DNA of 48,810 bases from Eubacteriales bacterium (GCA_028708525.1 JAQVYV010000001.1:1-48810); one strand, 5' to 3'; positions 1,742 through 30,725 are shown, numbered from the stretch's first letter. A program made the numbers and translations. Notes: generated by a model not told the origin, from the letters alone.

Positions 1742-2692
1742 ATGGTAAAATCATTTCGTTACAGCGAACATGATCATGAGGAGAGAATGAACAGACATCA
1801 AAGGATATTCACAATTATCAGAGATTATGTTTTGATAGTTGCAGGCAGTGCGCTTGTAGCTATTGCCATGGATATTTTTCTTGTCCCGAATAAGATCGCA
1901 AGCGGAGGAGCTACAGGACTTGCAACTGTACTGTTTCATGTTTCCAATGGTTTTCTTCCTGTAGGGGCTGTTATACTTGCTGTTAATGTACCATTGTTTA
2001 TACTTGGCATGAAAGTCATGGGCAGGTTGTTTCTTATCAAATCTGCTGTAAGCACTGTTTTATTGTCGGTTATGATAGATTTGTTTGAGCCATTCGCAGC
2101 TGATTTTACGAGAAAGTATCTTTCAGATTTTAAGTCGACCGGTATCGAGACCGATCTGTTGCTTTTATGTATATTTGGAGGAGTGCTTATGGGAACAGGC
2201 ATAGGACTGGTTTTCAGAGCGGGTGGTACAACAGGAGGTACAGATATCGCAGCGACGCTTCTGAGCAGGATATTCCAGAATGCAACGATAGGTCAGATAC
2301 TTCTGGTGATCGACGGTATAGTTGTGCTTTTTGCCGCAATAGCATTCAAGAGTTTTCTTCTGGCATTATACGCTATAGTTGTTATATACATCTCAACTAA
2401 AATAATTGATACTATCCTGGAAGGAGTCAATTTTGCCAAAGCGGTTTATATTATAACGGACTATCCTGAAGAAATTGCGGATATAATATTAAAGCAGCTT
2501 GACAGAGGGGTTACTGCTTTTGATGGAACGGGTATGTATACACGCAAAGATAAGAAAGTGCTTTTCTGTGTACTTGAGCGAACTCAGATACCGAAACTTA
2601 AGAATATAGTTAAAGCACATGATCCGAAAGCATTTATCGTCATGAATGATATTCGGGAAGTTCTTGGCGAATTCAATCGGGGGAAAAGATGA
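1742..2692 (+). CDS. YitT-family membrane protein (DUF2179 C-terminal domain)
   Basis: Repeated GG(A/T)TG motifs (ASGGATGLA, GGTTGGTDIA) in a multi-TM core. The soluble C-terminal domain (AVYIITDYPEEIADIILKQLDRGVT...VMNDIREVLG) is typical of the YitT family. Confidence 0.8.
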   Translation: MVKSFRYSEHDHEERMNRHQRIFTIIRDYVLIVAGSALVAIAMDIFLVPNKIASGGATGLATVLFHVSNGFLPVGAVILAVNVPLFILGMKVMGRLFLIKSAVSTVLLSVMIDLFEPFAADFTRKYLSDFKSTGIETDLLLLCIFGGVLMGTGIGLVFRAGGTTGGTDIAATLLSRIFQNATIGQILLVIDGIVVLFAAIAFKSFLLALYAIVVIYISTKIIDTILEGVNFAKAVYIITDYPEEIADIILKQLDRGVTAFDGTGMYTRKDKKVLFCVLERTQIPKLKNIVKAHDPKAFIVMNDIREVLGEFNRGKR

Positions 2693-3576
2693 TGAATGAC
2701 AGATCTAAAGGGTTTGCATATATCGCTGTTGTTTATGTTGTGGCTTTGTTAGCCGGATCGTTTATTTATCGTAATTGTATCAGCTTGGGGTATCTTATAG
2801 CTATAGCTGCTGCGGATTTTGGTGCGACAGTCATAATATGGGCATCCGGTGTTATGATCAGGAATTCATCTGTTTATGATCCATATTGGAGCGTTGCACC
2901 ATTTGTTGTACTGATTCTGTTTTCTTGTGATAGAGGCTCTGTTTCATCTGCCGGGATGATCATGCTTGTTGCTGTTACTTTATGGAGTTTCAGACTGACT
3001 GCAAACTGGGCTTATACTTTTCAAAGTATTAAATACCAGGACTGGAGGTACGACAAGTACAGGAATGATTTTCCTAAGTTATGGCCTTTAGTGAACTTTT
3101 TCGGAATAAATTTCATGCCGACGGTCATTGTCTACTTTGCCATGGTGCCGGGACTTATTTTAGTGAACGGAGATCACGCAGCCGGTCCTGTGACTTATTT
3201 GGCATTTCTGATATGCCTTGCGGCTGTTATGATACAGTTTGTATCCGATTCTAAGCTTCACAGATTCAGAAAGGTGAGCAGCAACAGTGAAGTTTGTTGT
3301 GAGGGGCTTTGGCGATACAGCAGACATCCGAATTACTTTGGCGAGATACTTATGTGGTGGGGCGTGTTTCTGATGCTTTTATCTGTCGACAGAAGCATGT
3401 GGGTTACAGGAGCAGGTGCTTTGATGAACACTTTGCTGTTTGTTTTCATAAGTATACCCCTCATGGAGAAGAGGCAACTTCTTAATAAGAAAGGTTACGA
3501 TGAGTATATGCTCAGGACCAACAAACTGATACCATTAAGCAGAGAGCTATTTACAAGAGGTATAAATGAGCACTAG
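2689..3576 (+). CDS. DUF1295 / steroid-5-alpha-reductase-like membrane protein
   Basis: Multi-TM protein with the C-terminal signature GLWRYSRHPNYFGEILMWWG. The start overlaps the yitT stop (ATGA 2689-2692). Confidence 0.75.
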   Translation: MMNDRSKGFAYIAVVYVVALLAGSFIYRNCISLGYLIAIAAADFGATVIIWASGVMIRNSSVYDPYWSVAPFVVLILFSCDRGSVSSAGMIMLVAVTLWSFRLTANWAYTFQSIKYQDWRYDKYRNDFPKLWPLVNFFGINFMPTVIVYFAMVPGLILVNGDHAAGPVTYLAFLICLAAVMIQFVSDSKLHRFRKVSSNSEVCCEGLWRYSRHPNYFGEILMWWGVFLMLLSVDRSMWVTGAGALMNTLLFVFISIPLMEKRQLLNKKGYDEYMLRTNKLIPLSRELFTRGINEH

Positions 3577-4852
3577 GAGAAGAAAACGGCGCAAGCGCAA
3601 TTATTTGCCGTACATCATAATGTTTCCGGCAGTTGTTATAGTTTGTGTTGCTGCTATTGTTATCATTCAAAATACACTTATAAACAACCGGATCCTTGCT
3701 GAAGTTATCATTGAAGCAGGCGATGAGTTACCTGATGCAGGAGTGTTCTGTAAAGATGACTCACTACAGGCATCTTTTAATGGTGACATCGCTATCTCTG
3801 ATACTTCAGTGCCGGGAAAATACCCGTTGGAAGTTACTGTTGATGGTAAAATATATAAAGTCAGCTTAATAGTTGAGGATACTGTTCCTCCGAGCGGTAC
3901 AGTTAAATCATGTGAAATATGGATGGGTGAGGAGATAGGTGCTGATCTTTTCGTGACCTCTGTTACTGATGTTTCTGAAGTTGCTGCAACTTTTGCTGTA
4001 AGACCGGACTTTGATCTTCCCGGAACACAGGATATAAATATTCTGCTTGAGGATTCATCAGGTAATAAAACAGAGCTTAACACTTCTCTTACGATAAAGG
4101 AGGATAAAGAGCCGCCGGTCATAAGCGGAACATCTGACAAAACGGTTTTCATCGGAGAAAATGTTTCATATCGTAAAAATGTTACAGTGACTGACAATAA
4201 GGATGTTGATGTACAGATCGAAATAGATAACAGCTCGGTTGATCCTGCAAAGGCCGGACGCTATCCTGTTAAGTATTCGGCTGCAGATTCAGCCGGTAAC
4301 AGAACCGAGATCACTGTTTACTATACTTTTCAAATCAAACCTGAAGGATATGTCTCGGAAGAAGAGCTCTATGAACTTGTCGATCAGGTGCTCGATGAAA
4401 TAATCGATCCCGGAATGAGCGATCTGGAGAAAATGTCAGAGATATTCTATTGGATAGCCGATCATATAAACTATATCGGAACATCGGATAAGTCGGATTG
4501 GATCAAAGGTGCCTATTTGGGAATGACTAGAGGGACAGGCGACTGTTTTAATTATTTTGCCGCAGCTAAAGCATTTCTGACACGCGCGGGTTATGAAACG
4601 ATCCCGATCGAAAGAGTTAAAGACGCTAAGACCAGGCATTACTGGAATCTTGTAAAATATGAAGGTGAATGGTATCATTTCGATCCGCTGCCGAATCTTG
4701 CAAAGTATCACTATGTGTGTTTACTCAGGACCGATGCAGAAGTCGCGGAGTATTCTAAGAAAAACACGCGATTCTATGAATTTGATAAAACGGGAATACC
4801 CGCTACGGCAACGAAGCCGCTGGATATCGAAAGAAAGGTCATCAATGGCTGA
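3566..4852 (+). CDS. membrane-anchored transglutaminase-like (Cys-His-Asp) protein with Ig-like repeats
   Basis: N-terminal basic stretch plus TM anchor (RRRKRRKRNYLPYIIMFPAVVIVCVAAIVII). Two Ig/DUF5011-like repeats (PPSGTV..., PPVISGTSDKTV...AGRYPVKYSAADSAGN). C-terminal transglutaminase core GDCFNYFAAAKAFLTRAGY...HYWNLVKYEGEWYHFDP. Confidence 0.75.
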   Translation: MSTRRRKRRKRNYLPYIIMFPAVVIVCVAAIVIIQNTLINNRILAEVIIEAGDELPDAGVFCKDDSLQASFNGDIAISDTSVPGKYPLEVTVDGKIYKVSLIVEDTVPPSGTVKSCEIWMGEEIGADLFVTSVTDVSEVAATFAVRPDFDLPGTQDINILLEDSSGNKTELNTSLTIKEDKEPPVISGTSDKTVFIGENVSYRKNVTVTDNKDVDVQIEIDNSSVDPAKAGRYPVKYSAADSAGNRTEITVYYTFQIKPEGYVSEEELYELVDQVLDEIIDPGMSDLEKMSEIFYWIADHINYIGTSDKSDWIKGAYLGMTRGTGDCFNYFAAAKAFLTRAGYETIPIERVKDAKTRHYWNLVKYEGEWYHFDPLPNLAKYHYVCLLRTDAEVAEYSKKNTRFYEFDKTGIPATATKPLDIERKVING

Positions 4853-5633
4853 ATGTTTTAGCATAAGTAAATCTGAACGGAAGTGCCTTGGTGTGATCGG
4901 CGGACTCGGACCGCTTGCTACTGTATATTTTATGGAACAGGTTATCGGGATGACTGAAGCTTTAACAGATCAGGAACATCTGGATATGATCGTTATCAAT
5001 TCTCCCGGCATACCTGACAGAACGGGTTTCATTCTTGACAGGAGCAAAGAGGATCCGCTTCCGGAAATGATATCGATAGCACGAAAACTTGAGATGCTTG
5101 GTGCGGATAACATTGCTGTTCCGTGTATAACCGCACATTATTTCTATGATATGTTGAACGCTTCTGTTGACATCCCTGTCATAAATGCTGTGACGGAGAC
5201 AGTTGATCATTTAGCTAAAGCCGGTTTCATTAAATTTGGGCTAGCCGCTACTGACGGGACGATTTCCAGCGGGTTATTCCAGAAGGAGGCATCAGCTAAA
5301 GGGATGGAGTGTATATTGCCCGATGAGATCTGTCAGAAAGATTTGATGAAGCTTATATATGATGATATCAAAGCGGGGAAAGAGCCGGATATGAAGCTTT
5401 TTCATGCAGTTGTCAGTGATTTGAGAAATAAAGGAGCACAGATGATCGTTCTGGGATGCACTGAATTGTCGCTTCTTAAGAAGGAAGAACTTATCGGACC
5501 GGGGTTCATTGATGTCACGGATGTTCTTGCCCGCGTTTCTGTGGTCACTTCAGGTGGACAACTGAAAAAGGAATACTTTGACTTGACGGGCGGCATAAGA
5601 AAATTTAGACAAGGAGAAAACGATGCAGTATAA
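4845..5633 (+). CDS. PLP-independent amino-acid racemase, Asp/Glu/hydantoin racemase family (aspartate racemase-like)
   Basis: GVIGGLGPLATVYFMEQVI N-terminal motif and two catalytic-Cys motifs (AVPCITAH and VLGCTELSLL). I chose ATG 4845 (MAECFS...), which overlaps the previous stop by 8 nt. The track start at 4659 would add 62 residues lying inside the transglutaminase gene. Confidence 0.85.
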   Translation: MAECFSISKSERKCLGVIGGLGPLATVYFMEQVIGMTEALTDQEHLDMIVINSPGIPDRTGFILDRSKEDPLPEMISIARKLEMLGADNIAVPCITAHYFYDMLNASVDIPVINAVTETVDHLAKAGFIKFGLAATDGTISSGLFQKEASAKGMECILPDEICQKDLMKLIYDDIKAGKEPDMKLFHAVVSDLRNKGAQMIVLGCTELSLLKKEELIGPGFIDVTDVLARVSVVTSGGQLKKEYFDLTGGIRKFRQGENDAV

Positions 5634-7140
5634 CGTACTCGAATACCTTGAAGATACAGTCAACAGAGTGCCCGGAAAGATGGCTTTCAGTGATGGAAAT
5701 TTCTCTGTGACGTTTGCTGAGGTATATCGTCAGAGCAGGGCTGTAGGCACCTGGTTGTCAGTTCGGCAATACTATAACGAACCGGTAGTTGTTTTCATGA
5801 ATAAACATCCTAAAACAATTACGGCTTTTCTCGGAGTTATTTACAGCGGAAATCATTATGTTCCTTTGGATGAAGAAATGCCTCTTTTCAGAGTTGGTCT
5901 GATACTTGAAACGCTTAAGCCCCGTATAGTTATCTGTGACAGTGTTGGTGCAAATAAGCTTGCTGGTTTCGGATATACCGGTATGATTGTCGAATATGAT
6001 GACATTGCTGACTCAAAGTCCGATGATGAGGTTTTAAGACTGATCAGAGACAGACAGATCGACACAGATGCGATCTATGTAGTTTTTACATCAGGCTCTA
6101 CAGGTGTTCCTAAAGGCATTGTTGCCTGCCATCGCTCGGTAATAGATTATATGGAGGCATTTACTGCAGCACTTGAATTGAATGAGACTGCGATTTTCGG
6201 TATGCAGGTACCTCTTTACTTTGATGCTTGTCTTAAGGAAGTTTTCTCTACGCTGAAATTTGGAGCGTCTACATATCTGATACCCCGAAGTCTATTCATG
6301 TTTCCTGTAAAACTCGTGGAATTTATGAATGAGAATAAGATCAACACTGTATGCTGGGTCGTTTCTGCGTTGACGATGATCTCGGCTTTTGGTGCACTTG
6401 AGAAATCTGTGCCGGTTCATTTGAAAACGATAGCATTCGGAAGCGAAGTAATGCCGGTAAAACAGCTTGATTTGTGGCGTAAAGCACTTCCGGGAGCGCA
6501 TTTCTATAATCTGTATGGGCCCACAGAAGCTACGGGCATGAGCTGTTTCTACAAAGTGTCAAGGGAGTTTTCGGAGGGTGAGGTCATTCCGATCGGAAAG
6601 CCCTTCAGAAACACGTCGGTATTTTTGCTGAAAGAAAATAACGAAGTTGCCGGATTTAATGAAACAGGGGAGATATGTATCAGAGGGACAGCACTTACTA
6701 TGGGATACTATCGTTCCTTTGATAAGACCGCGGAGGTCTTCGTTCAGAACCCGCTGAACAAAGTATACCCTGAACTGATATACCGTACAGGTGATCTCGC
6801 ACGGATGACCGAAGACGGTGACTTGATCTTTGTATCAAGAAAAGATGACCAGATAAAGCATATGGGTCACAGGATCGAGCTTGGTGAGATCGAATCGCAG
6901 GTCAGTCTTATTGAGGGAATAGGTCATTCGTGCTGTCTCTATGATAAGTCGACTGACAGGATCGTTCTGTTCTATTCAGGGGATACAGATGAAGGAGTAC
7001 TGATCAAACAGTTGCGCGGGAAACTTCCCAGATATATGTTACCTAATACTGTAGAGAGAATGAATAAGATCCCGTTGATGGCTAATTCTAAAATAGACCG
7101 TTCAGAATTGAAGCGGCGATTAAATAGTAATATTAAATAG
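5623..7140 (+). CDS. DltA-like carrier-protein ligase (stand-alone adenylation domain, ANL superfamily)
   Basis: Core A-domain motifs are present: VVFTSGSTGVPKGI (A3), FDACLKE (A4), NLYGPTEAT (A5), GEICIRG..LTMGY (A6), YRTGDLA (A7), GHRIELGEIE (A8), NSKIDR (A10 Lys). The 505-aa size and a following 75-aa carrier gene match DltA architecture. The start overlaps the racemase stop. Confidence 0.85.
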   Translation: MQYNVLEYLEDTVNRVPGKMAFSDGNFSVTFAEVYRQSRAVGTWLSVRQYYNEPVVVFMNKHPKTITAFLGVIYSGNHYVPLDEEMPLFRVGLILETLKPRIVICDSVGANKLAGFGYTGMIVEYDDIADSKSDDEVLRLIRDRQIDTDAIYVVFTSGSTGVPKGIVACHRSVIDYMEAFTAALELNETAIFGMQVPLYFDACLKEVFSTLKFGASTYLIPRSLFMFPVKLVEFMNENKINTVCWVVSALTMISAFGALEKSVPVHLKTIAFGSEVMPVKQLDLWRKALPGAHFYNLYGPTEATGMSCFYKVSREFSEGEVIPIGKPFRNTSVFLLKENNEVAGFNETGEICIRGTALTMGYYRSFDKTAEVFVQNPLNKVYPELIYRTGDLARMTEDGDLIFVSRKDDQIKHMGHRIELGEIESQVSLIEGIGHSCCLYDKSTDRIVLFYSGDTDEGVLIKQLRGKLPRYMLPNTVERMNKIPLMANSKIDRSELKRRLNSNIK

Positions 7141-7158
7141 ATACAGGAGACCGGAATA

Positions 7159-7386
7159 ATGAATGAATTAATAAGTATACTTAACGGATTGCATCCGGAT
7201 GTTGATTTTGCCGAAGCAGAAGGACTCGTAGACAACGGAGTGCTTGATTCGTTTGACATAATTAGTCTCGTCGCAGAAATCGACAGCGAATTCGATGTAC
7301 GTATACCGGCTGAAGAGATCCTGCCTGAAAATTTCAATTCAGCTAAAGCACTTTATGAACTTATAACACGGCTTGGCGATAACTGA
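7159..7386 (+). CDS. DltC-like aminoacyl/acyl carrier protein
   Basis: 75 aa and acidic, with phosphopantetheine-attachment motif GVLDSFDIISLVAEIDSEF. GGAGA RBS lies upstream. Confidence 0.8.
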   Translation: MNELISILNGLHPDVDFAEAEGLVDNGVLDSFDIISLVAEIDSEFDVRIPAEEILPENFNSAKALYELITRLGDN

Positions 7387-7400
7387 GGAGCAGTCAGCAG

Positions 7401-8993
7401 ATGCTTTTTACATCATACGAATTTTGGGGATTCATAGCATGTCTGTTCCTGCTATACTATTTAATACCCCGAAAATATCAATGGGTCATGCTTCTTGCCG
7501 CAAGCTATATTTTCTATTTTCTTGCGCATCCTACATATCTGATATATATCTCTGTAACGACCATGACAACATTTTACGCAGCGATGCGCATAGGTCAGCT
7601 GCTTAATGTTCAGAAAGCACATCTGGAGATTAACAAGGAGACTTTCAGTAAGGAAGAGAAGCAGGGGTATAAATCTTCTGTGCGGAAGAAGCAAAGAAAG
7701 TGGTTTATCGCTTGCCTGCTCATCAATTTTGGTATCCTTGCTTTTCTGAAATATACAAATTTTACGATAGCGAACATCAATTCTCTGTTATCGGTTCTGG
7801 GAACCGGAGAGCGACTGACATTCATGAATGTCATTCTTCCGATGGGGATCTCGTTCTATACATTTCAGGCAATGGGATATCTTATCGATGTTTATCAGGG
7901 AAAGATCAAACCGGAAAAGAGCATCTTCAGATTCGCGCTGTTTGTGTCGTTTTTCCCTCAGCTCGTGCAGGGGCCAATCAGCAGGTTCAACGATCTTTCA
8001 GCAACATTGTATGAGGAACACAGATTTGACTTTAAAGAAGTAAGTTATGGATTTCAGAGGATATTATGGGGTCTGTTTAAGAAACTTGTGATCGCTGACA
8101 GGATCCTTGTCGCAGTTAACACGATCATAAAGGAACCGGATGAGTACAACGGTGTCTTTGTCTTTGTCGGAATGATGTTTTATGCAATTCAGTTGTACGC
8201 TGATTTTACCGGCGGGATAGATATAACCATAGGTATAGCGGAAGTTTTGGGAATCAGGATCAAGGAAAATTTCAATGCTCCTTTTCTGGCGAAAAACATC
8301 ACAGACTACTGGAGACGCTGGCATATCACAATGGGTACATGGTTCCGTGATTATCTGTTCTATCCGCTTTCGGTGTCCGGCCCGATATTAAATCTTTCAC
8401 GGTGGTCCAGGCGCAGACTGGGTGATGGGTTAGGCAGGAAGATCCCCGTGTATCTGACAACTCTTATCGTGTGGTTTGCAACAGGTCTCTGGCATGGAAG
8501 CAGCTGGAATTTCATCGCATGGGGATTGACCAATGGTATAGTGATAATCATATCACAAGCGTTTGAACCGCTTTACGCACGCTTCCATAATAAGTTTCCT
8601 GTTAAAGGGAAGCCGTTATACTCGGCTTTCGAAGTGATAAGGACAGTTTTACTGATGAGTGCGATCAGGATGTTTGACTGCTACAGAGATGTTCCGCTGA
8701 CTTTTAGAATGTTCGGATCGATGTTTACTACCGGGAATTTTTCAGCTCTTTTCGACAGAGAGGTTATGAAACTTGGTCTTAGTGGTGCTGATTACATCGT
8801 TCTCGCAGCAGCGACCGTGATCCTCATAGCAAGTGGGATCCGAAGGAAAGAAGGCAGTATGCGTGACCGACTGGAAAAGATCCCTGCAAGGCGAAGATAT
8901 CTTATGATATATCTTCTGGGTGTGATAATACTTTTATTTGGAGCATACGGGGTCGGTTATGACGCTACACAATTTATTTACAATCAGTTCTGA
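7401..8993 (+). CDS. MBOAT-family membrane O-acyltransferase (DltB/AlgI-like)
   Basis: 530 aa, polytopic. MBOAT motifs FYTFQAMGYLIDVY, FWRRWHITMGTWFRDYLFYPL, and the conserved His in ATGLWHGSSWNF. Confidence 0.85.
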   Translation: MLFTSYEFWGFIACLFLLYYLIPRKYQWVMLLAASYIFYFLAHPTYLIYISVTTMTTFYAAMRIGQLLNVQKAHLEINKETFSKEEKQGYKSSVRKKQRKWFIACLLINFGILAFLKYTNFTIANINSLLSVLGTGERLTFMNVILPMGISFYTFQAMGYLIDVYQGKIKPEKSIFRFALFVSFFPQLVQGPISRFNDLSATLYEEHRFDFKEVSYGFQRILWGLFKKLVIADRILVAVNTIIKEPDEYNGVFVFVGMMFYAIQLYADFTGGIDITIGIAEVLGIRIKENFNAPFLAKNITDYWRRWHITMGTWFRDYLFYPLSVSGPILNLSRWSRRRLGDGLGRKIPVYLTTLIVWFATGLWHGSSWNFIAWGLTNGIVIIISQAFEPLYARFHNKFPVKGKPLYSAFEVIRTVLLMSAIRMFDCYRDVPLTFRMFGSMFTTGNFSALFDREVMKLGLSGADYIVLAAATVILIASGIRRKEGSMRDRLEKIPARRRYLMIYLLGVIILLFGAYGVGYDATQFIYNQF

Positions 8994-9015
8994 GTAGGAT
9001 GGTAACGGGTGATAT

Positions 9016-10053
9016 ATGAAATGGGTCAAAGTGACATTACGAATAGGAGTTGTTTCTCTGGTCATTGCAAGTTTTTTCTTTCTTCAGAGACTTGTGATGC
9101 CAAAATATGTGAACGGGATAGTCGAAGGGTCTCTGATAGAAACATACTACGAAGAAGAGGGGAATCACGATGTTATCTTTGTGGGAGACTGCGAGGTTTA
9201 TGAGTGCTTTTCACCGGTTGCTCTCTGGGAAGAGTACGGGATCCCCAGCTTTATCCGGGGAAGTGCTCAACAACTTATTTGGCAGTCATATTATCTGATG
9301 GAAGAAACGCTCAGGTATGAGAAACCGGAGGTTTTTATTTTCAATGTATTGGCAATGAAATACAATGAGCCTCAGAAAGAGGCATATAATCGTCTTACTT
9401 TGGACGGAATGCGTTTGTCTTCAGCCAAAATCAAGTCGATAAAGGCTTCGATGATGGAAGATGAGAACATGATTGACTATATCATCCCGTTGTTCAGGTA
9501 CCACTCAAGATGGAGTGAACTCTCCTTTGATGATTTTAGGTATTTTTTCAATAAAAAGAAACTTTTCCACAACGGTTATTATATGAGGGTAGATGTCAGA
9601 CCGGTAACGACATTTCCACAGGGGAAGAAACTGCCTGATTATAGTTTTGGGGATAACGCGTGGGGTTATCTTGAGAAAATGAAAAAGTTGTGTGATAATA
9701 ACGACATCGATCTGATGCTTATAAAGGCTCCGGCGATATACCCTTACTGGTATGATGAATGGGATGAGCAGATAAGGGAATATGCTGATTCGAATGATCT
9801 TATATATTTGAATTTTCTTGATCTGATCGAGGAGACCGGAATCGATTATAATACAGATACCTATGACACAGGACTGCATATGAATCTGTCCGGAGCTGAG
9901 AAATTGTCTCGCTACCTTGGTCCTATATTGCGGGAGAAATATGGTGTCCCGGATAGAAGAAATGATGCAGAACTCAGTCGTATATGGGAAGATAAAACAA
10001 CATTTTATTATGAGATGAAAGCCGCGCAGGAAACTGAGCTGGCGGGAAAATGA
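9016..10053 (+). CDS. membrane-anchored SGNH-hydrolase-like protein (DltD/AlgX-like partner of the MBOAT)
   Basis: N-terminal TM anchor. Block-I-like VIFVGDCEV, with Cys where SGNH enzymes have Ser. Block-V-like DTGLHMN (DxxH). Its position directly after an MBOAT mirrors dltB-dltD and algI-algJ/X. The family call is by motif and context only. Confidence 0.55.
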   Translation: MKWVKVTLRIGVVSLVIASFFFLQRLVMPKYVNGIVEGSLIETYYEEEGNHDVIFVGDCEVYECFSPVALWEEYGIPSFIRGSAQQLIWQSYYLMEETLRYEKPEVFIFNVLAMKYNEPQKEAYNRLTLDGMRLSSAKIKSIKASMMEDENMIDYIIPLFRYHSRWSELSFDDFRYFFNKKKLFHNGYYMRVDVRPVTTFPQGKKLPDYSFGDNAWGYLEKMKKLCDNNDIDLMLIKAPAIYPYWYDEWDEQIREYADSNDLIYLNFLDLIEETGIDYNTDTYDTGLHMNLSGAEKLSRYLGPILREKYGVPDRRNDAELSRIWEDKTTFYYEMKAAQETELAGK

Positions 10054-10604
10054 TTTTATTGGGGGATTTGATGTTGAGAATGAAAAAAACATGTGTTTTA
10101 TCGGTGGCTTTTATCATGGTTCTGACTTTATTCAGCGGTTGCGCTGATCCGACAGGTTCGTTAAGCAACAGCGATTCGGAAACTTCAGGTGCACAAGATA
10201 ATGAAGGGTATTCATTTAAAACTTCCGGGATTGCGATCAGCATGCATGATGATATGGCACCGATCCTCGATAAACTCGGTGAAGCTAAGAGTTATTTTGA
10301 AGCTGAAAGCTGTGCGTTTCCGGGTCTTGAGAAAACTTATACATACTCAAGTTTTAGCCTGTATACGTATGAAGATGGAGATATTGACCGTCTGGCAGCT
10401 CTGGTCATACTTGATGACAGCGTGGGGACTGCTGAAGGAATCTATCTGAATGACAGCCTCGATAAAATCATTGCAGCGTACGGAAGTGACTACACACATT
10501 CACTGAATCTCTATTCGTTTGAGAAGGACAGGATGAAGCTTTCTTTTATTGTTGAGGATGATATCGTGACTTCAATAGAATATGTTGCTTTGGCAGGGGA
10601 GTAA
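10050..10604 (+). CDS. small secreted lipoprotein, unknown function
   Basis: Signal peptide with lipobox MKKTCVLSVAFIMVLTLFSG|C. ATG 10050 overlaps the previous stop (ATGA). Alternative starts are at 10071 and 10080. Confidence 0.7.
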   Translation: MILLGDLMLRMKKTCVLSVAFIMVLTLFSGCADPTGSLSNSDSETSGAQDNEGYSFKTSGIAISMHDDMAPILDKLGEAKSYFEAESCAFPGLEKTYTYSSFSLYTYEDGDIDRLAALVILDDSVGTAEGIYLNDSLDKIIAAYGSDYTHSLNLYSFEKDRMKLSFIVEDDIVTSIEYVALAGE

Positions 10605-10708
10605 TGGAAGCGATGGAAGCGATCCCTTCGTCGATTTGACCCATACACCTTTCCGGTGTTACAATAAATTCAAATTTCATATGTACTGATGCTGAATTTC
10701 CTGCGACA

Positions 10709-10850
10709 CTCTTATCGCGGGAATACGGGGGAACCAATTTGTGGGGTGAATCGAAGGCTGCGACGATCAAGTCGTTTGTGCTGACGTAGGGCTTATCCTT
10801 AGTCCGAATCCGGCAGCTAACCTCGGAAGCTTATAAGGATCTGATCAAAG
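10709..10850 (+). promoter_or_regulatory. c-di-AMP riboswitch (ydaO-yuaA/kimA motif) in the leader of the aminomutase gene
   Basis: The conserved ydaO blocks are present in order: ACGGGGGAACCAAU (10725-), GGGGUGAAUC (10742-10752), GUAGGGC (10786-), GUCCGAAUCCGGCAGCUAACCUCGGAAGC (10802-10830). Compare the B. subtilis ydaO leader as I recall it: GGGGGACCCAAU, GGGGUGAAUC, GUAGGGC, CCCGAAUCCGUCAGCUAACCUCGUAAGC. It is followed by an intrinsic terminator and then the RBS. Confidence 0.75.
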
Positions 10851-10922: not shown

Positions 10923-12161
10923 ATGCAGGAGAAGAAAAGAGAAGCAAAACAGATCAGGGTAAGTAGATTTGAAGGTTTGAAATCAGAGATATCCGATTAT
11001 GAGAAGGTCAGAAAATCAATAAAAACGGGTATCGATGAAGCCGAAAGGATAGCTGCTCAGAAGAAAAAGATAATGAAAATTCTGCGTGCAAATGAAGAAA
11101 TGTGGGAAGATTATAAATGGCAGCTGAAAAATCGTTTTACTGATGCTGAAAAAATAGCAAAGATCATCGGGTTAAGCAAGGAAGAGGCGCAAGCCGTCCT
11201 TGAAGTAGGCAAAATTTATAGATATGCAATATCACCTTACTACCTTTCGCTCATCGATCCGAAAGACCCAATGTGTCCCATCAGGATCCAGTCACTCCCG
11301 GACTCCAAAGAGCTCGATAACTACGGCACTTTGGATCCTATGGATGAAAAGGGCTGGACACCTGAAGAACTGATAACGCGCAGATATCCTGACAGACTCA
11401 TCATAAAGGTCACTAACCAGTGCGGTATGTACTGTCGATTTTGCCAGAGAAGAAGAATGATAGGTGAACGTGATACTCATTCCGGAGAGAAAAGACTTCA
11501 GAAGGCGGTCGATTATGTGAAGAACAATCCCGAGATCAGAGACGTGCTAATAACAGGCGGAGATGCGTTCATGCTTTCCGACGGTATGATCGACTGGTTA
11601 TTGAGCGAACTAAGGAAAATAGATCATGTTGAGATCATAAGGCTTGGAAGCCGCACGCCTGTAACGCTGCCGCAGAGGATAACGCCCGAACTGGTTTCCA
11701 TACTCAGGAAGTATCACCCGATCTATGTCAATACTCACTTCAACAGTCCGGCTGAGATCACAGAAGACTCCGCCAAGGCTTGTGCTATGCTGGCAGATGC
11801 AGGAATACCGCTCGGAAACCAGATGGTCCTGCTCAATAATGTGAATAACGATCCGTTTATAGTAAGAAGACTCAACCAGGAGCTTCTGAAAATAAGAGTG
11901 AAGCCATATTATATATTCCATCCCAAAACAGTAAAAGGAACCCGACATTTCTGGGTCAGGATCGAAGAAGGGCTGGAGATAGTAGAATCACTACGAGGCA
12001 GGACATCAGGAATGGCCATTCCCACCTACATAGTTAACGGCAGCGGAGGATTAGGAAAGACACCGATACTTCCGAATTATCTGCTTTACATTGGAAAGAA
12101 TAAAGCAAAATTCAGAAATTGGAGAGGTGAAATATTCGAGGTGAAAAACTCTGCGGAGTGA
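10923..12161 (+). CDS. eam: KamA-family radical SAM/PLP aminomutase; residue signature of glutamate 2,3-aminomutase
   Basis: CGMYCRFCQRR (CxxxCxxC) cluster motif, with strong colinearity to Clostridium subterminale lysine 2,3-aminomutase (ISPYYLSLIDP, HRYPDR-like RRYPDRL, RDVLITGGDA, GSRTPVTLPQRITPEL, NTHFN, GNQMVLL, KTP). At the lysine epsilon-amine binding positions, Asp293 is Lys (YYIFHPK) and Asp330 is Asn (PTYIVNGSGGLGK). That is the substitution pair reported for glutamate 2,3-aminomutase. Confidence 0.8.
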   Translation: MQEKKREAKQIRVSRFEGLKSEISDYEKVRKSIKTGIDEAERIAAQKKKIMKILRANEEMWEDYKWQLKNRFTDAEKIAKIIGLSKEEAQAVLEVGKIYRYAISPYYLSLIDPKDPMCPIRIQSLPDSKELDNYGTLDPMDEKGWTPEELITRRYPDRLIIKVTNQCGMYCRFCQRRRMIGERDTHSGEKRLQKAVDYVKNNPEIRDVLITGGDAFMLSDGMIDWLLSELRKIDHVEIIRLGSRTPVTLPQRITPELVSILRKYHPIYVNTHFNSPAEITEDSAKACAMLADAGIPLGNQMVLLNNVNNDPFIVRRLNQELLKIRVKPYYIFHPKTVKGTRHFWVRIEEGLEIVESLRGRTSGMAIPTYIVNGSGGLGKTPILPNYLLYIGKNKAKFRNWRGEIFEVKNSAE

Positions 12162-14687: not shown

Positions 14688-15542
14688 ATGGCACATTCGG
14701 TTTTTGAAGGAAATATCGGAAGAAACGCGGTAAGTGATCATATCGTTACTGAACTTACTGAAGCCTTTCTACTTGAAACTGACAGATACGCATCTATGCC
14801 CAGAATATATGAAGTCATCAGATGCATAGGGGGCGTCCCGCTTTTTGCCGAAGACCACATTGAAAGATTAAGTGAAAGCTTTCGAGCTAAATTTGGCAGT
14901 GATGATCTTGAACAGAACCGGATCATGTCAGACATAAGGGCACTTATACTATCTGAAGGGATAATTGACGGCAATGTGAAAGTTGTTGTTACAGAAGAAG
15001 CGTCATTTGTTTTTCCTTCCGCATTCTACTATCCCCCTGAAACAACATACGCCCGCGGTGTATTTGTCGGCATAACTGAGTGGGAAAGGTCACGCCCGAA
15101 TGTTAAGATGATAGTGGATCAGTATAAGAAGACCATTGCGGATAAACTTTCTTCGGTAGGTCCGATGGGAAGCTATTTTGAGACTTTACTCAAGACGGAA
15201 GACGGAAGGATCACGGAAGGAAGCAGGTCGAATGTGTTTTTTGTAATGGATGGTGAGCTTTATACCTCGCCTGATGACATGATCCTGAAAGGAATAACCA
15301 GAAGGTATGTTCTTGAAGCTTTAGAAACAGCGGGATACAAGGTGAGATTTGAATGTGTCAGAAATACTGATATCGGAAGGTCTGTGTTTGCCGGTTTTCT
15401 TTCGGGTACATCTATAGGAGTTTTGCCTGTTGCAGCAGTTGAAGATGTGGAAATGGATTCTGCAAGTAATGAAATGATTTTAGCGATCCGTAATGAATAC
15501 AATAAATTGGTCAGTAAATATCTGGATCAACATAATATATAA
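14688..15542 (+). CDS. class IV (fold type IV) aminotransferase, D-amino-acid/branched-chain/ADC-lyase family
   Basis: [22 protein letters not shown] and [34 protein letters not shown] closely parallel Bacillus D-amino-acid aminotransferase segments ([45 protein letters not shown]). Substrate class was not resolved. Confidence 0.8.
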   Translation: [284 protein letters not shown]

Positions 15543-18364: not shown

Positions 18365-18958
18365 ATGAAATGGTTTTCTAAGATCAACAGAGGCGCGATA
18401 CTGACTGCCGCTGTTTTACTTTGTGTTGTGATCTATCTTGTAGTGCTTTCAATTACACAGAAAGCAAGTGTGCCTGAATTGAAGAAGATATGCGAGGAGT
18501 ACATCGAGCTTGATGTTAAGTACAGCATGTTACCTTCTGAACAGAGAAAATCAACACCTGATATTACAGATGATCAACTTGATGAGTATATCAACGAAAT
18601 GGAGAATGAACTTTCTGTCTTTTATCCTTCAGGTGAACAATACTCAGAATTTGCATTAAATGCTAAATCTGCTTTGTTAAAGAAACAGGCTGCAGGACAA
18701 TCGGTCACAACGGAATATGCGAAAGAGATCATTCGTTATCAGAATTTTGTTTTTAAAGATGATACAGTAACAGTCACACTTCTTACAGAAACTTCGATCG
18801 AACGAGCCGGTCAAAGTGAGAAGGACATTTACGCTGCCGGTAAGATGGAAATGACTGACAGCATAATACTGATGAAATTCAACGGACAGTGGAAAATCAT
18901 ACATGCTGAAATCAACCAACCGGGTGACAATTACTCGGAGTACCCGTACTATAAGTGA
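18365..18958 (+). CDS. hypothetical membrane-anchored protein
   Basis: 197 aa with a single N-terminal TM (AILTAAVLLCVVIYLVVLSI). I recognised no motif. It sits directly upstream of the ABC pair. Confidence 0.5.
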   Translation: MKWFSKINRGAILTAAVLLCVVIYLVVLSITQKASVPELKKICEEYIELDVKYSMLPSEQRKSTPDITDDQLDEYINEMENELSVFYPSGEQYSEFALNAKSALLKKQAAGQSVTTEYAKEIIRYQNFVFKDDTVTVTLLTETSIERAGQSEKDIYAAGKMEMTDSIILMKFNGQWKIIHAEINQPGDNYSEYPYYK

Positions 18959-28775: not shown

Positions 28776-30725
28776 ATGAGAAAATCATTTGTATGGTTCA
28801 TTGCTGTGCTTACTACAGTTACAATTTTGTCTGCGAATCTTAGTAATGATCATAAACATGAAGTACGTGCCGATCAGGTTACACTTCAAATTGACGCTTC
28901 CAATGTCATTAATGCAATGGATCCTCAGATGAGAGGTTCTACGATCGGTATCTGGACAAATCAACATTATTATCCAACAGCAAATCCCAAGCTTGTCAAC
29001 ATGCTTAAAGAAGCCGGTATGAAACTGCTAAGATATCCTGCAGGATCAGAGGCAGACGACACGATGTTTGAGAGAAGCAACACCGGGGAATGGTACAAAG
29101 GCACTTCACCGTATACAAGAAGAATGAGAGCGGACCATCTTGATGCGTTCATTTCTCTGTGCAGACAAGTCGGAGCTGAGCCTCTTATAGTTGTTAACGC
29201 GAAAATAGATAATCCGGCAATGGCAGCCGATATCGTAAAATACTGCAATGTCGAACATGATTATAACGTTCGGAAATTTGAAATAGGGAATGAACCAATT
29301 TACTGGCAAAACACTACGGTCAGTCAATATGCTGATCGGGTAAAAAGGTATGCTGACGCCATGAAAGCAATCGATCCGTCGATTTCTATCCTTAGTTCAG
29401 CAGCACCTCAGCCAACGACAATTAACTCGTGGCTCACTCCTGTTATGAAAACCGCAGGCAGCAAGATCGACGCTGTAACTATTCACTGGTATCCGTTATG
29501 GGATGGAGCAACCAGTCCGTCGCATCCACAGTATCCAAGTATCCCGCATCTTCTGTATTATGATTACGGTCCTTCGGGAAACCAACAGGGAGCCATAATG
29601 TTTTCGAAGAGGTTCGTGTTAACAAACTCCGACAGTCTGACAAACCTTCGCGATCAATACTCACCCGGTGCTTCGATTGGAATAACAGAATTGTCACCGG
29701 TTGCCGGGGGTAACAGTGTAAGCGGTGTTTCTGACACTTTGGGGAATGCTTTGTGGTATGGAGACATTTTGGGACGGCTTGCATATTATGGTGTGGATTT
29801 TGCCAACCAATTTCTGGCGATATCTGAACCTCAGAAGTATGCGATGTCAGATTATAAGTATAATATCAGACCTTCCTGGTATACCTATATCATGTATAAC
29901 AGATATTTCGGAGATATTCTTGTAGAGTCGGAATCAAGTCTGGATTCTGAACTAACAGTTTGGGCAAGCAAAAAGAACAATATCAATAATAAGCTTTATC
30001 TTATGGTCATAAATAAAAATCTTTCATCATCCCATAGCGCAACTATTGATATTTCGGGATTTGGTCAGGTATCATCTGCCCGAAAATGGACAATGACTTC
30101 GACTGCATATAATTCATTGAATGCGTCTATCAATGGTGTTTCATACTCAAGTGATGCGACGTTGGCTTCGATCGACCCGGTCACGATAAATGTCTCCGGA
30201 AGCACTTTTACTCATAATTTTCCGGCTTACTCAGTTACAGCGATCGAACTGACCGCGTCAGGCGACCCTGTTCCGACATCAATGCCATCTCCGACAAATC
30301 TTCCGACTCCGCAAGCTACTGCAGTTCCTACAGTTACTACAGTTCCTTCAGTTACTACAGTTCCTTCAGTTACTGCAGTTCCTTCAGTTGCTGCAGTTCC
30401 TTCAGTAACTCCGCAGTTAACTCCGCCAACATCAACATCGTCACTGCTTTTGTCTTCAGCATCAGTATCAGAATCAGAATCAGATTCAGAATCAGAAGTA
30501 TCCGCTACATCGTCAGAAGTATTTTCAACTCCGGGAGTAATATCAGAGACAGAATCAGGCTTAGTCTCAGACGAAGTTATATCTGATAGTTCAAATATCG
30601 AAGAAGGTAACAAGCAGACCCAAGGTAAAATACCAGACTGGATAATATGGCCGGCGTTATTGGTTTTGTTATCATCATTGTTAACTATACTGTGGTCTGT
30701 CGGGATATTTCGGAGAAAACAGTAA
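28776..30725 (+). CDS. secreted, C-terminally membrane-anchored clan GH-A-like glycoside hydrolase with Pro/Thr/Val and Ser/Glu linkers
   Basis: Signal peptide (MRKSFVWFIAVLTTVTILSA). TIM-barrel-like motifs LLRYPAGSEADD, FEIGNEPIYW (candidate acid/base Glu), IHWYP, GITELS (candidate nucleophile Glu), and a beta-sandwich tail. Repeat linker (T[AT]VP[ST]V)x5 plus SESESDSESE. Terminal TM plus RRKQ. The GH family was not resolved (GH30/39/51/79-like). Confidence 0.65.
   Translation: MRKSFVWFIAVLTTVTILSANLSNDHKHEVRADQVTLQIDASNVINAMDPQMRGSTIGIWTNQHYYPTANPKLVNMLKEAGMKLLRYPAGSEADDTMFERSNTGEWYKGTSPYTRRMRADHLDAFISLCRQVGAEPLIVVNAKIDNPAMAADIVKYCNVEHDYNVRKFEIGNEPIYWQNTTVSQYADRVKRYADAMKAIDPSISILSSAAPQPTTINSWLTPVMKTAGSKIDAVTIHWYPLWDGATSPSHPQYPSIPHLLYYDYGPSGNQQGAIMFSKRFVLTNSDSLTNLRDQYSPGASIGITELSPVAGGNSVSGVSDTLGNALWYGDILGRLAYYGVDFANQFLAISEPQKYAMSDYKYNIRPSWYTYIMYNRYFGDILVESESSLDSELTVWASKKNNINNKLYLMVINKNLSSSHSATIDISGFGQVSSARKWTMTSTAYNSLNASINGVSYSSDATLASIDPVTINVSGSTFTHNFPAYSVTAIELTASGDPVPTSMPSPTNLPTPQATAVPTVTTVPSVTTVPSVTAVPSVAAVPSVTPQLTPPTSTSSLLLSSASVSESESDSESEVSATSSEVFSTPGVISETESGLVSDEVISDSSNIEEGNKQTQGKIPDWIIWPALLVLLSSLLTILWSVGIFRRKQ
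30318..30407 (+). repeat. in-frame 18-nt tandem repeat x5 (hexapeptide T-[A/T]-V-P-[S/T]-V) inside the GH gene
   Basis: ACTGCAGTTCCTACAGTT / ACTACAGTTCCTTCAGTT / ACTACAGTTCCTTCAGTT / ACTGCAGTTCCTTCAGTT / GCTGCAGTTCCTTCAGTA. Units 2 and 3 are identical. Confidence 0.9.
30468..30497 (+). repeat. in-frame 6-nt microsatellite (TCAGAA-like x5; Ser-Glu/Ser-Asp) inside the GH gene
   Basis: TCAGAATCAGAATCAGATTCAGAATCAGAA. Confidence 0.8.

Follow-up and report, generated by a model that had tools for sequence, protein, structure and literature searches.

A seven-gene clostridial cassette predicted to decorate the cell envelope with a D-amino acid other than D-alanine

D-Alanylation by the Dlt system is the textbook case of carrier-protein-dependent aminoacylation of the bacterial envelope, and it helps to determine how well bacteria resist cationic peptides and how they interact with the host. 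In a stretch of DNA of 48,810 nt from a Eubacteriales bacterium (GCA_028708525.1, JAQVYV010000001.1:1-48810), hereafter called the window and used for numbering, a first reading made from the sequence only (the sequence-only reading) had noticed six tightly linked genes in which a Dlt-like set follows a racemase of the Asp/Glu family that does not depend on pyridoxal phosphate (PLP). It had proposed an envelope-modifying module for a D-amino acid other than D-alanine. Which amino acid would such genes handle, and to what would they attach it? We found that they belong to an autonomous cassette of seven genes that is widespread in gut and rumen Clostridia. In our judgement this self-contained cassette probably decorates an extracytoplasmic acceptor with a D-amino acid other than D-alanine, D-aspartate being the most likely one. 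The profile and synteny analyses support the proposal of a non-alanine module; the amino acid and the acceptor are inferred.

All six open reading frames (ORFs) were found at the positions and in the order that had been described, on the plus strand: racemase, adenylating ligase, carrier protein, membrane-bound O-acyltransferase (MBOAT), SGNH-fold protein and lipoprotein (Table 1). The stop of the racemase overlaps the start of the ligase by 11 nt (5623-5633), as claimed; the ligase is separated from the carrier by 18 nt, the carrier from the MBOAT by 14 nt and the MBOAT from the SGNH-like gene by 22 nt, and the latter overlaps the lipoprotein gene by 4 nt. The mechanical ORF of the racemase opens at 4659, and the start that is consistent with its homologues is the ATG at 4845. 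Profile searches placed the racemase, ligase, carrier and MBOAT above the cut-offs of PF01177, PF00501, PF00550 and PF03062, respectively; the SGNH assignment came from the fold only. The unit is, however, larger than the six genes first noticed. A seventh, which had been missed, encodes a transglutaminase-like protein; its stop overlaps the start of the racemase by 8 nt, and 68 of 71 homologous loci have it upstream of the ligase at a distance of at most 1.3 kb.

These loci were collected with the ligase. A homologue search gave at least 8,000 candidates, all with E ≤ 1e-20, the best 120 of which were mostly about 60-65% identical. A scan of one genome per species gave at least 597 relatives, and the best 80 loci, 57-64% identical, were analysed. 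Genes were counted by tblastn with the window proteins, the denominators being the loci with enough sequence. The gene order of the cassette recurs in these 80 loci, which come from different species-level genomes. In 69 of 79 loci (87%) the racemase immediately precedes the ligase, often with overlapping stop and start codons, and in 71/79 the carrier directly follows the ligase; the MBOAT, SGNH and lipoprotein genes lie downstream of the ligase in 65/69, 58/63 and 51/57 loci. The adjacency of racemase and ligase, on which the sequence-only reading had built, is not unique to this genome. When every ORF of the 80 loci was clustered against all others, no further recurrent gene family emerged; the cassette is therefore autonomous and occurs in unrelated genomic contexts. 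Relatives occur in Lachnospiraceae, Oscillospiraceae, Agathobacter, Roseburia, Pseudobutyrivibrio and others, and cultured carriers of the cassette include Pseudobutyrivibrio ruminis CF1b (locus L064) and Cuneatibacter sp. NSJ-177. Their source annotations are generic ('amino acid adenylation domain-containing protein', 'SGNH/GDSL hydrolase family protein', 'hypothetical protein'). Among the results of full-text literature searches, no description was found of a cassette combining a racemase, an adenylation enzyme, a carrier, an MBOAT and an SGNH protein, in keeping with the sequence-only reading, which knew of no characterised system of this composition.

Clues to the cargo come from the ligase and the racemase. 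The ligase had been called DltA-like. It is indeed an adenylating enzyme (PF00501, 192.3 bits; cut-off 29.9) but, judged by its profile matches, of the nonribosomal peptide synthetase (NRPS) type and no DltA equivalog: it scored 232.2 bits with TIGR01734 and 239.2 bits with NF003417, against DltA cut-offs of 559.85 and 476, and 311.2 bits with the NRPS adenylation-domain model TIGR01733, just below the cut-off of 317.4. Among sequences in the PDB, it was closer to the adenylation domains of LgrA (311 bits) than to DltA chains (about 150-156 bits).

We mapped its specificity positions onto PheA residues 231-452, using a fragment whose sequence and numbering were verified against 1AMU and an alignment made with MAFFT. 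They read D201, A202, K205, C244, A271, G273, L297, G305, M306 and K490, corresponding to the code DAKCAGLGMK. Nine of the mapped pocket positions are each identical in 79-81 of 81 sequences, D201 being invariant in all 81, and K490 falls in an invariant Lys column in an alignment of 16 sequences. As in NRPS domains, the AMP-binding fold is thus accompanied by the equivalents of Asp235, which binds the α-amine, and of Lys517, which binds the carboxylate. Since both are retained, the substrate would be an α-amino acid. Fatty and aryl acids, an option that the sequence-only reading had allowed for, are unlikely because the Asp that binds the α-amino group is kept. A basic residue at position 239 is found in adenylation domains that activate glutamate and methyl-aspartate, and the invariant Lys at this position (K205) suggests, by analogy, that the cargo has an anionic side chain. 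The carrier that would receive it matched PF00550 (22.6 bits; cut-off 20.8); among NCBIfam models it came nearest to DltC (NF003464), with 33.9 bits for a cut-off of 68, and it scored 22.9 against 52.35 with a second DltC equivalog model. Its Ser31, in the LDSFD motif, is the phosphopantetheine-attachment site, and DSfDI is conserved in 77 sequences.

The racemase matched PF01177 (136.8 bits; cut-off 31) and belongs to the aspartate-racemase subfamily by its score of 210.8 bits with TIGR00035 (asp_race; cut-off 93.1), whereas it reached only 31 bits with the glutamate-racemase model TIGR00067. Its best match in the PDB was the aspartate racemase of Pyrococcus horikoshii (1JFL, 180 bits). Cys94 and Cys205, in the PCITAH and LGCTEL motifs that had been pointed out, are conserved in 73 racemase sequences, as are Arg59 and Lys176. 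In the P. horikoshii enzyme the latter two correspond to Arg48 and Lys164, which we take to be the residues that bind the β-carboxylate of the side chain. Taken together, the DAKCAGLGMK pocket and the aspartate-type racemase argue, at the level of sequence, against D-alanine as the cargo.

Sister cassettes provided an internal control for this interpretation. They were reached from relatives of the SGNH-fold protein with a serine at the nucleophile position (Ser-type), traced to metagenomic contigs. Seven loci (L083, L088 and L090-L094; L088 1956-7523 is an example) contain a ligase, a carrier, an MBOAT with a fused F.Y..F motif, an SGNH protein with GSS and, as a possible supply enzyme, a glutamate-2,3-aminomutase-like gene; L089 has the same core on a contig that ends within the SGNH gene. 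The ligases of this aminomutase type have the pocket DAIR[VI]GIGVK, in which Asp235 is kept and an Arg occupies position 278. Two other loci, L084 (1671-6349) and L085, comprise YitT, ligase, carrier, MBOAT and Ser-type SGNH genes without any supply enzyme, the MBOAT being split into ORFs of 67 and 466 aa and ending in FIYGQF. Their ligase pocket, SMLYLALDIK, has neither Asp235 nor a basic residue, and their cargo may not be an α-amino acid, because the Asp that binds the α-amine is missing. A basic pocket residue is therefore found exactly where there is a linked supply enzyme from an acidic-amino-acid family, which supports our reading of Lys205.

In two of the sister loci (L089 and L091), GT11, GT2 and ABC-exporter genes immediately precede the aminomutase-type cassette, and L089 has an asparagine synthase as well. 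These surroundings are a glycopolymer context, and the aminomutase-type cassette may attach β-glutamate to a polysaccharide. In another locus (L071), a racemase and a ligase of the window type are joined to a Ser-type SGNH gene, without the transglutaminase-like and lipoprotein genes.

The MBOAT (PF03062, 64.5 bits; cut-off 27) scored 156.4 bits with the DltB equivalog model TIGR04091, over residues 96-416 only and well under the cut-off of 375. Its sole sequence homologues in the PDB were DltB structures (6BUG and 8JEM, 93 bits), the match covering residues 146-388 and spanning the WHG with the catalytic His. With 530 aa against 425 aa in the solved DltB chain, it has extensions at both its N and C termini. 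The C-terminal one comprises two extra hydrophobic segments (458-481 and 499-523) followed by a terminal FIYNQF, and F-I-Y-x-x-F forms the C-terminal end of all 72 MBOAT orthologues examined. FxYxxF is the acyl-shuttle motif whose Tyr takes over the acyl group from the MBOAT and brings it to the SGNH enzyme; it is located in the DltX microprotein in the Dlt system and on two further transmembrane (TM) helices in PatA and other MBOATs that use acetyl-CoA, in pathways without a carrier protein (PMC12148441). The sequence-only reading had noted the absence of dltX. A separate dltX is indeed absent, since no TM-associated ORF of the window other than the MBOAT itself ends in F.Y..F, but the shuttle hexapeptide is present, fused to the MBOAT C terminus. 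Because the match of Pfam DltX to this tail was insignificant (E = 0.71), we based the assignment on the published definition of FxYxxF. The MBOAT therefore has the arrangement of the PatA/PatB type, a C-terminal FxYxxF on two additional TM helices. With a Dlt-style carrier and a PatA-like fused shuttle in one cassette, it is best read as combining the Dlt and PatA/PatB schemes.

The protein encoded downstream of the MBOAT had been described as SGNH/DltD-like. The first half of this description was borne out by modelling. By sequence the protein gave only a sub-threshold match with Lipase_GDSL_2, but its AlphaFold model, built with 32 homologues (pLDDT 84, pTM 0.83), confirmed a predicted SGNH fold: in Foldseek, GDSL/SGNH acylhydrolases and TesA were the best matches, PatB ranking 32nd and DltD (3BMA) 45th. 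The second half was not, as Pfam DltD gave no match even at E ≤ 10 and the nucleophile position is occupied by a cysteine. Block I reads GDCEV, with Cys59, and GDCE is found in at least 98% of 68 orthologues; in block V (DTYDTGLHMN) the Asp and the His are conserved. An exhaustive search of the wider family gave 6,415 representatives, and the column composition was taken from the best 150. Among these, the nucleophile column holds Cys in 50, mostly as GDCE in close relatives of the window protein, and Ser in 87 more distant relatives (G[SDN]S), the remainder having a gap or another residue. The corresponding block I of DltD is GSSEL, and the surveyed SGNH structures are described with a default Ser-His-Asp triad and with Ser nucleophiles only (PMC10792757). 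Cys59 can therefore be assigned to the nucleophile slot, since the same column holds Ser in distant relatives and in the GSSEL of DltD. We set aside PF27429 (LB_356), a family precomputed on some of the homologues, which gave no match in local Pfam and has an uninformative name.

In the cases examined, Cys-type SGNH proteins are accompanied by the transglutaminase-like protein and the lipoprotein, and both are missing beside the Ser-type relatives. The change from Ser to Cys is fixed in the subfamily that co-occurs with these two proteins, an association that is only suggestive because the Ser-type sample is small. The transglutaminase-like protein matched Pfam Bact_surface_Ig-like (39.6 bits) and Transglut_core (34.5 bits) and has a single hydrophobic segment, an N-terminal TM helix at residues 11-41. 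Its core contains Cys327, His358 and Asp373, and the corresponding GDC, H.W and WYH.D motifs are conserved in 50 orthologues; a sequence search of the PDB returned matches through the Ig-like domain only. In seven loci (L003, L017, L019, L044, L055, L061 and L062), two to four tandem paralogues of this gene precede the racemase, which suggests diversification of this accessory protein. The lipoprotein matched no Pfam or NCBIfam family and has no recognisable catalytic motif, and a sequence search of the PDB gave nothing useful. Its AlphaFold model (pLDDT 84) retrieved, in Foldseek, the N-terminal domains of 4IFA and 4H0A, YjgB (4YGT), the BLIP-like 3D4E and YfeY (2QZB); judged by this model, it is probably a binding or accessory module.

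We infer the following pathway, in each of its chemical steps as in its substrate and acceptor, from the gene content, protein families, motifs and synteny that were observed. The racemase would make the D-isomer of an acidic amino acid, most likely D-aspartate and possibly D-glutamate or D-cysteate. The adenylation enzyme would activate this D-amino acid, Asp201 holding the α-amine and Lys205 facing the side chain, and load it as a thioester on the 75-aa carrier. The MBOAT would then bring the aminoacyl group through the membrane to the Tyr in the FIYNQF at its own C terminus, a task performed by DltX in the Dlt system and by the fused motif in PatA. From there, the SGNH-fold enzyme would take the aminoacyl group on Cys59, rather than on a Ser, and hand it to the final acceptor, most likely a glycopolymer such as teichoic acid or peptidoglycan. 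The other two extracytoplasmic proteins, the transglutaminase-like one and the lipoprotein, are conserved accessories that might serve to present the acceptor, to transfer the group onward to an amine or to take it off again.

Several points weigh against this pathway or parts of it. The racemase is not adjacent to the ligase in 10 loci; it is present elsewhere in the locus in 3 of these, and 7 of the 79 loci have none in the sequence examined, which extended up to 10 kb upstream. No alternative supply enzyme was found among the neighbours of the racemase-less loci. The link between Lys239 and an acidic substrate is an analogy, and the code DAKCAGLGMK is, to our knowledge, not exactly equal to any specificity code. 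Furthermore, the residues at positions 299 and 301 depend on the alignment (I270 and F272 with BLAST, A271 and G273 with MAFFT and HMMER), the other positions remaining unchanged. Cys59 could have a role other than that of nucleophile. The acceptor is a guess, because the racemase-type cassette never adjoins genes for polysaccharides or teichoic acids, and the charge-reduction logic of the Dlt system does not carry over, since an α-ester of D-aspartate adds no net positive charge. Finally, the racemase also scored above the cut-off for the cysteate racemase CuyB (NF052483, 204.1 against 190 bits).

This last score bears on the possibility that the scheme is correct and the cargo is D-glutamate, D-cysteate or another D-amino acid of the RacX/YgeA type, not D-aspartate; CuyB, too, belongs to the aspartate-racemase family (PMC11193023). 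The glutamate code DAKDLGVVDK shares DAK at positions 235, 236 and 239 with the code of the ligase, and the small residues at positions 299, 301 and 330 would fit a side chain longer than that of aspartate. Yet the margin of the asp_race model over the glutamate-racemase model, the aspartate racemase as closest solved relative and the conservation of the Arg48 and Lys164 equivalents point to aspartate. Nor does a CuyA-like gene, or any additional one, recur near the cassette in the 80 loci, and no CuyA-like gene adjoins it in the window. We therefore regard another cargo as rather unlikely, though it deserves to be kept in mind.

The aminoacyl group could also end up on something other than a glycopolymer, namely on a protein (such as the lipoprotein or the transglutaminase-like protein of the cassette), on a membrane lipid or, as an amide, on an amine of peptidoglycan. 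The unrelated contexts of the racemase-type cassette, away from glycopolymer genes, and the two additional extracytoplasmic proteins that it always brings along would agree with such an acceptor, and the co-occurrence of the Cys-type SGNH protein with a Cys-His-Asp transglutaminase-like protein makes a thioester relay to an amine chemically plausible. This co-occurrence is drawn, however, from a small Ser-type sample and is merely suggestive, the sister cassettes are found in glycosyltransferase and ABC-exporter loci, and all characterised bacterial MBOAT-SGNH pairs acylate glycopolymers (PMC12148441). A non-glycopolymer acceptor thus seems unlikely to us.

A broader and equally doubtful proposition, which we put forward tentatively, is that of an unrecognised modular clostridial family in which a common core (ligase, carrier, MBOAT with fused Tyr shuttle, SGNH enzyme) combines with a supply enzyme, racemase of the aspartate type or glutamate-2,3-aminomutase-like, to decorate the Gram-positive envelope with acidic non-proteinogenic amino acids (D-aspartate, D-glutamate or β-glutamate), the Cys-type SGNH and transglutaminase-like proteins of the racemase branch forming a thioester relay that ends not in an ester but in an amide, for instance on a peptidoglycan or protein amine. 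Such a relay, if true, would attach amino acids outside the cytoplasm in a new way.

Least probable is a divergent Dlt D-alanylation system in which the ligase loads D-alanine and the racemase either supplies it or is functionally unrelated: the logic of dltABCD (ligase, carrier, MBOAT, SGNH) is shared, the closest NCBIfam models of the carrier and the MBOAT are DltC and DltB, DltB is the sole solved homologue of the MBOAT and JGI pipelines label the ligase 'D-alanine--poly(phosphoribitol) ligase subunit 1', but the equivalog scores lie far under the cut-offs for DltA, DltB and DltC, the ligase lies nearer to the adenylation domains of NRPSs than to DltA, its pocket combines an invariant Lys with small residues where that of DltA is hydrophobic, the SGNH-fold protein has no DltD-family match, and the racemase found next to the ligase in most loci is of the aspartate-racemase subfamily, not an alanine racemase.

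Table 1. Genes of the cassette, in window coordinates.
Product	Position	Strand	Basis of assignment
Transglutaminase-like protein, TM-anchored, with Ig-like domain	3566..4852	+	Pfam, conserved Cys/His/Asp, synteny
PLP-independent two-Cys racemase, aspartate-racemase subfamily	4845..5633	+	PF01177, TIGR00035, PDB 1JFL
Stand-alone NRPS-type adenylation enzyme (ligase)	5623..7140	+	PF00501, TIGR01733, PDB LgrA
75-aa carrier protein, Ser31 in LDSFD	7159..7386	+	PF00550, conserved DSfDI
MBOAT with DltB-like core and C-terminal FIYNQF (codons 8973-8990)	7401..8993	+	PF03062, DltB homology
SGNH-fold putative acyltransferase, N-terminal membrane anchor, Cys59 (codon 9190-9192)	9016..10053	+	AlphaFold, Foldseek
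Lipoprotein, lipobox Cys31, predicted BLIP/DUF4309-type two-repeat α/β fold	10050..10604	+	AlphaFold, Foldseek

The boundaries of the cassette were set with the help of its neighbours. Upstream, the YitT and DUF1295 genes (1742-3576) overlap the first gene of the cluster, but this linkage is not conserved in the 80 loci, and they were rejected as members. The YitT-family gene of the window (1742-2692) is upstream of the cluster, and the relatives at L084 and L085 also have a YitT gene. Downstream, a c-di-AMP riboswitch (RF00379, 71 bits; 10680-10846, plus strand) opens a new unit. It is directly upstream of a gene (10923-12161, plus strand) for a glutamate-2,3-aminomutase-like radical SAM protein, which scored 632.7 bits with TIGR04368, just below the cut-off of 650. 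This gene was considered as a part of the cassette and placed outside it, because the riboswitch intervenes and no counterpart lies within 10 kb in any of the 80 orthologous loci. The arrangement would place the synthesis of β-glutamate under the control of c-di-AMP, in line with osmolyte regulation.

About 4 kb downstream of the cassette (14688-15542, plus strand) is a gene for a divergent class-IV aminotransferase that falls under every equivalog cut-off and is weakly similar to branched-chain and D-amino-acid transaminases alike. No canonical dlt operon was found in the remaining 38 kb of the window. The rest is housekeeping (ffh, rimM, trmD, obg, uvrB, dnaE, pfk, an SbcCD-like pair and an ABC-2 transporter), together with two plus-strand ORFs that match no Pfam family, one of 197 aa (18365-18958) and one of 649 aa (28776-30725), the latter with a faint arabinofuranosidase-like stretch only.

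Comparison with known systems places the cassette between several of them. Its racemase resembles the aspartate racemase 1JFL and CuyB, being a two-Cys PLP-independent enzyme that keeps the equivalents of Arg48 and Lys164, but it differs from both in being translationally coupled to an envelope-modification module. Unlike CuyB, which is associated with CuyA, it stands outside amino-acid catabolism, and it is also unlinked to the cytoplasmic synthesis of peptidoglycan cross-bridges. A DltA-like ligase and a DltC-like carrier are likewise used by AlmEFG of Vibrio cholerae to bring glycine to lipid A. In that system, however, AlmG is of the lipid A acyltransferase family, there is neither an MBOAT-SGNH pair nor a racemase, and the host is Gram-negative.

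With the Dlt system (DltX-DltA-DltB-DltC-DltD), which D-alanylates teichoic acids in Bacillota, the cassette shares a carrier loaded by a ligase, a DltB-like MBOAT with its catalytic His, the Tyr shuttle of FxYxxF, a membrane-anchored SGNH-fold enzyme for the last transfer and, presumably, a D-amino acid as cargo. It differs in that all four of the corresponding proteins fall far under the Dlt equivalog cut-offs, the ligase has a different pocket with an invariant Lys, a cofactor-independent racemase of the aspartate type is encoded in the cluster as the supply enzyme, the shuttle is fused to the MBOAT instead of residing in DltX, the SGNH protein has Cys for Ser without matching DltD, and two extra extracytoplasmic proteins are present. 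If our interpretation is true, the surface of major gut and rumen commensals bears an overlooked modification with a different, probably acidic, D-amino acid.

The MBOAT-SGNH acetyltransferases of the PatA/PatB type, which O-acetylate peptidoglycan, and of the AlgI/AlgJ/AlgX type have in common with the cassette an FxYxxF on two extra C-terminal TM helices of the MBOAT and a separate SGNH partner, and accessory periplasmic proteins are common in them as well. These systems use acetyl-CoA without a carrier protein (PMC12148441), whereas the cassette encodes both a ligase and a carrier, and its SGNH protein has a Cys. The cassette thereby unites two schemes that have been kept apart in the recent literature, a carrier with DltX on the one hand and an acyl-CoA with a fused shuttle on the other, and its SGNH protein is a natural variant with Cys at the place of the nucleophilic Ser.

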